Origin: Escherichia coli
Lineage (GTDB): Bacteria > Pseudomonadota > Gammaproteobacteria > Enterobacterales > Enterobacteriaceae
Assembly (NCBI RefSeq): GCF_003334815.1
Contig: NZ_QOWO01000107.1
DNA: 1,086 nt
Direction: 5' to 3' (one strand)
Shown: positions 590 to 1,086 of the stretch, piece by piece
Layout: the number at the start of each line of letters is the position of its first letter
How positions within the stretch are numbered: position 1 is the first letter of the stretch
The notes under the pieces: generated by a model
Databases searched by the model: none
The model's input: the letters and a program-made list of their open reading frames with translations, nothing else
What the model was told of the DNA's origin: nothing
Translations under genes and position numbers: made by a program

Positions 590-644
590 TGGTAAAGTAC
601 CTGAACATATCCTGCCACCTGCACAGACAGACGGCAGGGGGTAA

Positions 645-911
645 TCAGTGGCAGACCCGTTCAATTTCAAGCGCACGGAGCAGGTGCCCCCACTCGCTGA
701 CTTTCATGGCGGGGATACGCACCCGCTTCCGCTCACTGCAGCGTCTGGCGATATGACCGCCCATCGCCAGGACGTCCGGGTTAATCTCATCCGGTGCCAG
801 TTCCTGGCGTCTGAAGCGGGTATGGCGGTGCAGGGGTTTGTTCTCCCGCAGGCACTCTTCACGCAGACGCTTTACATATTCAGCCGTTGCAAAGATAATT
901 GATGGTCTCAT
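645..911 (-). CDS. hypothetical small basic protein, 88 aa (MRPSIIFATAEYVKRLREECLRENKPLHRHTRFRRQ...ERVCH); Arg-rich, possibly nucleic-acid binding; identity unknown
   Basis: ATG at 911..909 preceded by GGAG (923..920) with an 8-nt spacer; stop TGA at 647..645; Leu codons are CTG-dominated on this strand (6 of 8) versus CTC-dominated on the mirror plus-strand ORF; about 15 Arg + 4 Lys against 12 Asp/Glu. The track extends this ORF to 1007 (120 aa), but the extension crosses the terminator hairpin and uses rare AGG/ATA/CGG codons. Confidence 0.5.
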   Translation of the reverse strand: MRPSIIFATAEYVKRLREECLRENKPLHRHTRFRRQELAPDEINPDVLAMGGHIARRCSERKRVRIPAMKVSEWGHLLRALEIERVCH

Positions 912-919
912 GGCATAAT
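911..919 (+). promoter_or_regulatory. candidate extended -10 element (TGgCATAAT) on the plus strand
   Basis: TG at 911-912, one nt, then CATAAT at 914-919 (5/6 match to TATAAT); no convincing -35. A transcript from about 926 would end at the 979-1004 terminator. Sequence pattern only. Confidence 0.2.
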
Positions 920-923
920 CTCC
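920..923 (-). promoter_or_regulatory. Shine-Dalgarno (GGAG) for the 645..911 gene
   Basis: GGAG then 8 nt then ATG at 911..909. Confidence 0.45.
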
Positions 924-942
924 ATAGTTCGTGAATGAGATG

Positions 943-969
943 CCGGACTTCCGTACGGGGAAGCGCCGG
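943..969. promoter_or_regulatory. imperfect palindrome / inverted repeat upstream of the small basic gene; candidate operator or RNA stem
   Basis: CCGG-a-CTTCC-GTACGG-GGAAG-cg-CCGG: outer CCGG (943-946 / 966-969) and inner CTTCC (948-952) / GGAAG (959-963) arms around a GTAC core; lies 32-68 bp upstream of the ATG at 911. Confidence 0.3.
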
Positions 970-978
970 CAGAGAAAG

Positions 979-1004
979 GCAGGGTTTATCGCCCTGCTTT
1001 TTTT
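979..1004 (+). terminator. intrinsic (rho-independent) terminator hairpin, strongest on the plus strand; possibly bidirectional
   Basis: Stem GCAGGG (979-984) / CCCTGC (992-997), 7-nt loop TTTATCG, then T7 run (998-1004); an A-rich tract upstream (973-977) could extend the stem. On the minus strand the same hairpin is followed by the weaker tract CTTTCTCT. Confidence 0.6.
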
Positions 1005-1086
1005 CATTCCGGACAGCGACGCAGTGCCAGCGCGAGCGCTTTCATCTTCCAGCCTTCCGGCGTGCGGTACATCACCTTCCAGTAGC
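1004..1086 (-). CDS. 3' end of an unidentified gene entering from the right edge (C-terminus ...YWKVMYRTPEGWKMKALALALRRCPE, stop TGA at 1006..1004)
   Basis: Frame open from the window edge to the TGA, with CTG/GCG/CGT/CGC/CCG/GAA codons; stop is followed immediately by a hairpin. Not in the ORF track because the start lies outside the window. Only 27 codons are visible, so support is limited. Confidence 0.35.
   Translation of the reverse strand, partial: YWKVMYRTPEGWKMKALALALRRCPE

Follow-up and report, generated by a model that had tools for sequence, protein, structure and literature searches.

The window, that is, the whole stretch of 1,086 nucleotides analysed here, matches many E. coli plasmids at 100% identity and more than 1000 further sequences, nearly all of them plasmids, at 90-95%, and is part of the leading (first-transferred) region of IncI/IncF conjugative plasmids. 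On the IncI-gamma plasmid pSTM709 (L002), the gene order along the minus strand is psiB, psiA, ardA, ygcA, ygdA, yhgA/rpn, ygfA and ydiA, with oriT and nikA coming next, and the leading-region genes at this locus are all located on the minus strand, pointing toward oriT. The T-strand is known to run 5' to 3' away from oriT and to be the template of the leading-region genes (PMC11541004). Since these genes use the T-strand as template and lie here on the minus strand, the map indicates that the plus strand of the window would be the T-strand and thus the template for ygdA and its neighbours.

The gene ygdA (645-911, minus strand) is a real open reading frame, annotated in RefSeq, and codes for the 88-aa small basic protein that the initial annotation had pointed out, with a pI of 10.2 and 19 K+R residues. 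Direct reading of the sequence places its AUG at 909-911 and its Shine-Dalgarno motif GGAG at 920-923 (minus strand), within the span of the antisense RNA predicted below. The 3' end of ygcA (144 aa) occupies positions 1004-1086 of the minus strand, and its stop codon TGA (1004-1006) abuts a T run. YgdA showed no match to Pfam, NCBIfam or PHROG families, nor to the PDB by sequence profile. Its AlphaFold model, composed of three helices with a pLDDT of 78.5, had no match at E below 1 among PDB folds with Foldseek, the top match having an E of 2.5. Among homologues, the C-terminal half of YgdA hardly varies and the N-terminal half is poorly conserved. An in-frame open reading frame of 120 aa (645-1007, minus strand, with an ATG at 1007 within the terminator A run) was considered and rejected, its extension crossing both hairpins described below and being interrupted by stop codons in other lineages. 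For these same reasons, the calls of ygdA at 119-120 aa found in several database entries are probably over-long.

Other features of this region were observed besides ygdA. A few bases past the ygdA stop codon, a perfect 12-bp hairpin (CCTGCCGTCTGT / GCAGGTGGCAGG) lies at 611-638 (minus strand); its dG of about -18 kcal/mol or stronger puts it on a par with the palindrome described below. No U run follows this hairpin, which could stabilise the 3' end of the mRNA or be a processing site. A direct repeat of 70 nt, 76% identical between positions 8-77 and 520-589, duplicates the ribosome-binding site and first codons of rpn/yhgA. In comparison with pSTM709, where rpn directly follows ygdA, the window has about 452 nt extra (~78-528), flanked by this repeat and holding a gene for an acidic, cysteine-rich protein of 129 aa (454-65, minus strand), an arrangement that suggests recombination or insertion at the 5' end of the Rpn nuclease gene. 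In the record L001, identical to the window, the downstream Rpn family gene (2096-2985) is annotated as frameshifted, a pseudogene. On the other side, the 144-aa product of ygcA is labelled 'post-segregation killing protein PndC' in some GenBank records; no hok/sok-type RNA was found by Rfam at the ygcA locus and the YgcA protein matches only PHROGs with no assigned function (phrog_1987, phrog_23089), so that the label looks like an annotation carry-over. Upstream of ygcA, at L001 4430-4650 (~430-650 bp past the right end of the window), the T-strand can form a hairpin of about 220 nt (dG -104.7 kcal/mol, z -8.46), a plausible candidate for an ssDNA promoter of early ygcA-ygdA transcription.

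The palindrome that had drawn attention to this locus was found at 943-969, its sequence on the plus strand being as described, with, in succession, CCGG, A, CTTCC, GTACGG, GGAAG, CG and CCGG. It does lie upstream of the 88-aa gene, at 32-58 bp from the ATG, the distance given originally (32-68 bp) being too long. The stem gains one or two outward pairs, leading to a full stem at 941-971 of 11-12 bp with a bulge, in which, on the plus strand, positions 941-946 pair with 966-971 and 948-952 with 959-963 around a loop at 953-958. As RNA, the plus strand folds into 11 pairs and the minus strand into 12 with a single bulge (dG -19.4 kcal/mol, z -4.15), a result that none of 200 shuffles of this 37-nt segment equalled. 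When the whole window was shuffled with its dinucleotides preserved, a 37-nt hairpin of at least this order of stability (-19 kcal/mol or stronger) appeared somewhere in 11 of 60 shuffles. On single-sequence grounds alone, the palindrome is thus not far beyond chance, and its significance comes from the comparison with other loci rather than from the single sequence. As an intrinsic terminator it would need a U run directly after its stem; what comes after the stem is AUCUCAUUC on the minus strand and GAGAAAGG on the plus, with a U run in neither, and the palindrome is not among the sites reported by the terminator scan.

A promoter scan of the window found one promoter-like site only, TTTACA-17-GATAAT (871-899, plus strand), which matches at 10 of 12 positions and is directed against ygdA. 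Its -35 hexamer TTTACA (871-876) lies inside ygdA codons 12-14 and its -10 hexamer GATAAT (894-899) inside codons 5-6. No sense sigma-70-like promoter was found within 912-1004, and none is conserved there in the 36 loci compared below. Also on the plus strand, an intrinsic terminator lies at 978-1004, made of a GCAGGG/CCCTGC hairpin and a run of seven T (998-1004), the hairpin being backed by covariation as well. This hairpin may also terminate the minus strand behind ygcA, weakly. A main role of the hairpin (978-997) as the ygcA terminator was considered and rejected, since loci with an unrelated upstream gene, or with none, still have it and since its T run points in the other direction. 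Between promoter and terminator, a cis-antisense sRNA of about 99 nt is predicted at 906-1004 (plus strand), its 5' end being placed from the -10 hexamer and from the model alignments. The predicted RNA folds as three stem-loops (dG -43, z -4.28): stem-loop 1 (SL1, 906-940) with a UCUCAU/AUGAGA stem, the palindrome as stem-loop 2 (SL2, 941-971) and the terminator hairpin as stem-loop 3 (SL3). In SL1, the complement of the ygdA start codon forms part of the stem and the loop carries CUCC, complementary to the Shine-Dalgarno motif; SL1 also has a counterpart in the Rfam consensus discussed below. It is the least certain part of the predicted RNA, because its stem is poorly conserved within the IncI lineage.

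To compare loci, relatives of YgdA were collected. A protein search with YgdA gave nothing beyond close relatives and frameshifted variants, and the apparently intermediate proteins (62-84% identity) were discarded as frameshift products of nearly identical DNA; with tblastn, relatives about 35-47% identical were found in thousands of plasmids. A scan with one genome per species added 29 more loci, including loci from Lelliottia, Pantoea, Cedecea, Mixta, Erwinia, Klebsiella, Raoultella and Edwardsiella. The comparison set comprised 36 distinct homologous loci across the Enterobacterales, the ygdA homologues being about 35-45% identical. The same two hairpins, H1 and H2, were present within about 90 nt 5' of the ygdA homologue in all 36 distinct sequences. 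H1 has the form GCAG(G/A)-loop-C(C/T)TGC, with an A run on the sense side, and H2, the counterpart of the palindrome, follows 8-9 nt past H1. The base of H2 is GCCGG/CCGGC, sometimes GCTGT/ACAGC, GCCAG/CTGGC or GCCGC/GCGGC, and conservation within the hairpin is highest in these outer arms, GCCGG/CCGGC. The upper stem of H2 differs fully by lineage (CTTCC/GGAAG, ATTTAT/ATGAAT, AAAAATCG/CGGTTTTT or CCTG/CAGG) with pairing kept, and the centre-to-centre spacing of the outer arms varies from about 17 to 30 bp between lineages. In the MAFFT alignment, the H1 and H2 consensus structure of 16 pairs was paired in 95.5% of the cells, with changes on both sides in 10 pairs. The observed covariation values were reached by none of 500 column shuffles, and in controls in which the partners were slid by 1-3 columns 32-50% were paired. 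The refuting outcome proposed originally, a palindrome not conserved at homologous loci, did not occur: the palindrome is conserved, though in structure and not in sequence.

The flanking signals accompany the hairpins. In 36/36 loci, 4-7 T come after H1 on the antisense side, the sense side having only CTTTCTCT-like tails. An equivalent antisense promoter (at least 9/12 with a 17-nt spacer), with a TTTACA or TGGACA -35 hexamer and an AACAAT-like -10 hexamer, was found in 35 of the 36 loci, ending at +12 to +24 from the ATG; elsewhere in the 380 nt covered at each locus, matches of equal quality came, over all loci together, to 4 antisense and 3 sense. An extended -10 TG is present in 33 of these 35 promoters; the window's promoter lacks it, compared with 33 of 34 other loci having TG. 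The upstream gene is not conserved: in L003 and L004 it codes for proteins of 114-119 aa unrelated to YgcA, with both hairpins present, and in pO157 no open reading frame ends upstream of the ygdA homologue, yet both hairpins are present. The hairpin module therefore belongs to ygdA. Directly downstream, 31 of 36 non-IncI loci have a gene for an N6 DNA methylase (19) or a DUF3560 protein (12), DUF3560 being followed by a class I SAM methyltransferase in 10/10 loci whose sequence extends far enough; in IncI-type plasmids, the Rpn nuclease comes after ygdA instead. The downstream methyltransferases are unrelated to each other and to the IncI ydiA. On the grounds of these downstream genes, the module heads a leading-region methyltransferase cassette in most lineages.

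In the window's own lineage, 13 variants from IncI-gamma/K, IncK2/Z, IncI1/B/O and related plasmids were aligned. None of the 12 positions of the promoter hexamers was variable, and the 17-nt spacer varied at five positions, exactly its five ygdA third-codon positions; third-codon positions were thus variable in 0/4 cases within the hexamers versus 5/5 in the spacer (Fisher 1/126). In H2, variation touched 5 of the 6 loop positions and 5 of the 22 stem positions, the stem changes including a G-C to C-G swap at 946/966 and others giving wobble pairs on either strand; the H1 stem was variable at 2 of 14 positions and SL1 was poorly conserved. The IncK2/Z group has a GTG start codon for ygdA and a different leader. 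We observed also that Val13, one of the few invariant residues in the N-terminal half of YgdA, has its codon (873-875) inside the -35 hexamer. Its conservation may be due to the antisense promoter rather than to the protein; conversely, part of the conservation of the -35 hexamer could be due to the invariant Val13 codon.

The Rfam family RF02875 (AS-pc01), "Antisense to pHK01_035", occupies the same antisense position. Following its Rfam description, we take AS-pc01 to be an antisense sRNA of the IncFII plasmid pHK01, and its source study is reportedly that of Jiang et al. (2017, FEMS Microbiol Ecol; cited in PMC9029176). The IncFII plasmid pEG356, presumably closely related to pHK01, served as a stand-in for it. 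On F-type loci, RF02875 scored 109.6 bits in pEG356, 81.7 in L008 and 79.4 in L005/pO157, for a gathering score of 79, and the match extended from a few bases within the start codon of the 76-aa homologue of ygdA into the T run. The RF02875 consensus exhibits three stem-loops: SL1, whose loop contains CUCC, SL2, corresponding to H2, and SL3, corresponding to H1. Against the window, RF02875 aligned model positions 1-99 with 906-1002 (plus strand) at 15.5 bits (E 8.9), below the 79-bit threshold, and at this threshold it had no match on L001, so that by the Rfam criterion the window element is not a member of the family. Since RF02875 misses the window at its threshold, a covariance model, R1, was built from the 34 non-IncI loci only, among them the F-type loci that RF02875 recognises. 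R1 found the window element full length at 904-1003 (plus strand) with 34.9 bits and an E of about 1e-6, a rough value as the calibration was shortened, and it matched the same place in L001 and L002. The window element is most likely, judging from these alignments, a diverged AS-pc01 relative that the current Rfam model misses. A second, weak but full-length R1 match (17 bits, E ~0.02) was observed over the ygcA start codon (L001 4348-4429 and L002 6791-6871, plus strand); it contains CAT, CUCC, a hairpin and a GC hairpin, and may be a degenerate antisense module or chance.

Taken with the conserved promoter, the terminator and the covarying hairpins, the homology to the AS-pc01 family leads us to regard the palindrome, with good though not full confidence, as stem-loop 2 of a predicted cis-encoded antisense RNA gene lying over the ygdA start. 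The initial annotation had offered, as a fallback, an RNA stem in a read-through transcript: the stem stands, but an antisense RNA with its own promoter and terminator is better supported than a mere read-through sense transcript. In the window's lineage this RNA would be made and would act as a repressor in the following way. The sigma-70 promoter inside the first codons of ygdA would start plus-strand transcription near 906, and the RNA would cross the start codon and Shine-Dalgarno motif of ygdA (SL1) and the palindrome (SL2) and would stop at 978-1004. In the leader of the ygdA mRNA, the same bases would form a mirror hairpin. If the pair behaves like FinP/traJ, CopA/CopT and Sok/hok, antisense RNA and leader would first make contact through the complementary SL2 loops, and pairing would then spread over the Shine-Dalgarno motif (920-923) and the AUG (909-911), giving a duplex of about 95 bp. 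Such a duplex would hide the ribosome-binding site and invite RNase III, leaving ygdA silent, and in most plasmid lineages the downstream methyltransferase genes would fall silent as well.

Several of these observations would also suit an element of the sense RNA only, in which the hairpin would be a 5' stabiliser, a processing site or a translational modulator in the ygdA leader, carried by ygcA-ygdA read-through or by a transcript from an ssDNA promoter, independently of any antisense RNA. Of 29 variants, 20 had the more stable hairpin in sense, and several F-type stems have closing G.U pairs in sense alone. Sense transcripts must cross both hairpins, there being no sense promoter from the first hairpin to the ATG, and a transcript of this kind could be driven by the very strong ssDNA hairpin located upstream of ygcA. 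Over the hairpin variants, G.U pairs numbered 30 in sense versus 37 in antisense and both strands fold about equally; as this strand test favours neither, a function of the hairpin in the sense mRNA is inseparable from the antisense RNA. A sense element by itself leaves the position of the antisense promoter, the T run on the antisense side and the AS-pc01 match unexplained, and we hold it to be unlikely as the sole explanation; as an addition it is compatible with the antisense RNA, because antisense systems need the mirror hairpin in their target. Pure chance, to which the 11 equally stable hairpins in 60 whole-window shuffles might point, would have to account for a hairpin conserved, with compensatory changes, in 36 loci from many genera, and a palindrome with no function is hardly credible.

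Two explanations at the DNA level were also weighed. The operator proposed originally, an inverted repeat in double-stranded DNA bound by a YgdA dimer that represses its own gene, draws on the small size and basic character (pI 10.2) of YgdA and on the outer arms being the best conserved part of the hairpin. The spacing of these arms, from about 17 to 30 bp, does not suit a dimer at a fixed site, the inner arms are unrelated in sequence yet complementary, and the supposed site changes while the C-terminal half of YgdA is nearly invariant. Moreover, no sense promoter overlaps the site and the family and fold searches related YgdA to no DNA-binding protein, although a protein lacking such relatives may still bind DNA. 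The palindrome is thus probably not a protein-binding operator, and autoregulation of this kind was given very little weight. A marginally smaller weight was given to an element of the T-strand as ssDNA, either a priming (ssi) site or part of a Frpo-like ssDNA promoter used while the plasmid enters the recipient. The window belongs to the leading region and would enter as plus strand, leading regions do bear ssDNA promoters (PMC12672017, PMC11541004), and the same bases would form DNA hairpins. Against this, the T-strand DNA at 760-1086 exhibited no large hairpin (z -1.39, versus z -8.46 upstream of ygcA), the promoter hexamers lie outside any long stem, and a stem of about 12 bp is too short to rebuild a -35/-10 promoter.

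The predicted antisense RNA bears on how leading-region genes are switched off. Early expression of these genes is now regarded as the means by which conjugative plasmids evade restriction, CRISPR and SOS in the new host, and their switching on is explained by ssDNA promoters, their switching off only by the inactivity of these promoters once the DNA is double-stranded (PMC11541004, PMC12672017). Antisense RNAs are not mentioned in PMC11541004, in PMC12672017 or in a 2026 F-plasmid preprint. Because its transcription needs the complementary strand as template, the antisense RNA would not be made from the incoming single strand and would come on only after second-strand synthesis; we infer that it appears only after conversion to duplex DNA and could be an off-switch for the early genes. 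A tentative extension, which we think possible but would not favour, is a switch governed by the strand state, in which ygdA and, in most lineages, the methyltransferases after it, templated by the T-strand, could be transcribed at once from ssDNA promoters and the antisense RNA would later stop translation of the first gene. If true, this switch would confine an anti-restriction module to the first minutes after entry, in transconjugants and not in donors, and the conservation of the module before three unrelated types of methyltransferase would mark a general 'early-only' control cassette. The AS-pc01-like RNA is a concrete candidate for the switch-off step. The comparison also shows that this sRNA family, catalogued but functionally uncharacterised, extends well beyond its Rfam model, with relatives on IncI, IncK and IncB/O plasmids and on plasmids of Klebsiella, Enterobacter, Erwinia, Pantoea and others, always on the first gene of a conserved leading-region cassette and usually just ahead of an orphan DNA methyltransferase. 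A smaller practical gain is the correction of the over-long ygdA calls and a broader annotation model.

Among known systems, the Frpo and ssi elements share the neighbourhood and are likewise hairpin-forming DNA between leading-region genes (PMC12672017). Their hairpins, of 200-300 nt, rebuild -35 and -10 boxes, whereas the window palindrome measures about 30 nt.

FinP/traJ, CopA/CopT and Sok/hok are plasmid cis-antisense RNAs whose targets carry mirror hairpins. As is generally known of FinP/traJ, and also of CopA/CopT and Sok/hok, such RNAs are cis-antisense, 80-100 nt long, have bulged stem-loops and a terminator and cover the 5' UTR or ribosome-binding site of the target, as the predicted RNA does. 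The window element has no sequence or Rfam relation to FinP/traJ, and its target is a leading-region gene, whereas the targets of FinP, CopA and Sok are a transfer activator, a replication gene and a toxin, respectively. We know of no dependence of the window antisense RNA on a FinO-like chaperone.

AS-pc01 itself differs from the window element in several respects. Within stem-loop 2, the inner stem and loop show no sequence relation, the window's -10 hexamer GATAAT is without the extended TG, the genes downstream are the Rpn nuclease and the 129-aa gene and not DUF3560 and the methyltransferase, and the locus is close to oriT and not beyond ssb and psiB. The two are alike in their target family, the F-type 76-aa protein being 43-45% identical to YgdA with an invariant C-terminal motif, and in their position, which extends from inside the start codon to a T-run terminator. 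Both have a promoter within the first codons of the target, and both exhibit three stem-loops, of which the last is a Rho-independent terminator, with SL2 and SL3 backed by covariation and SL1 weakly supported.
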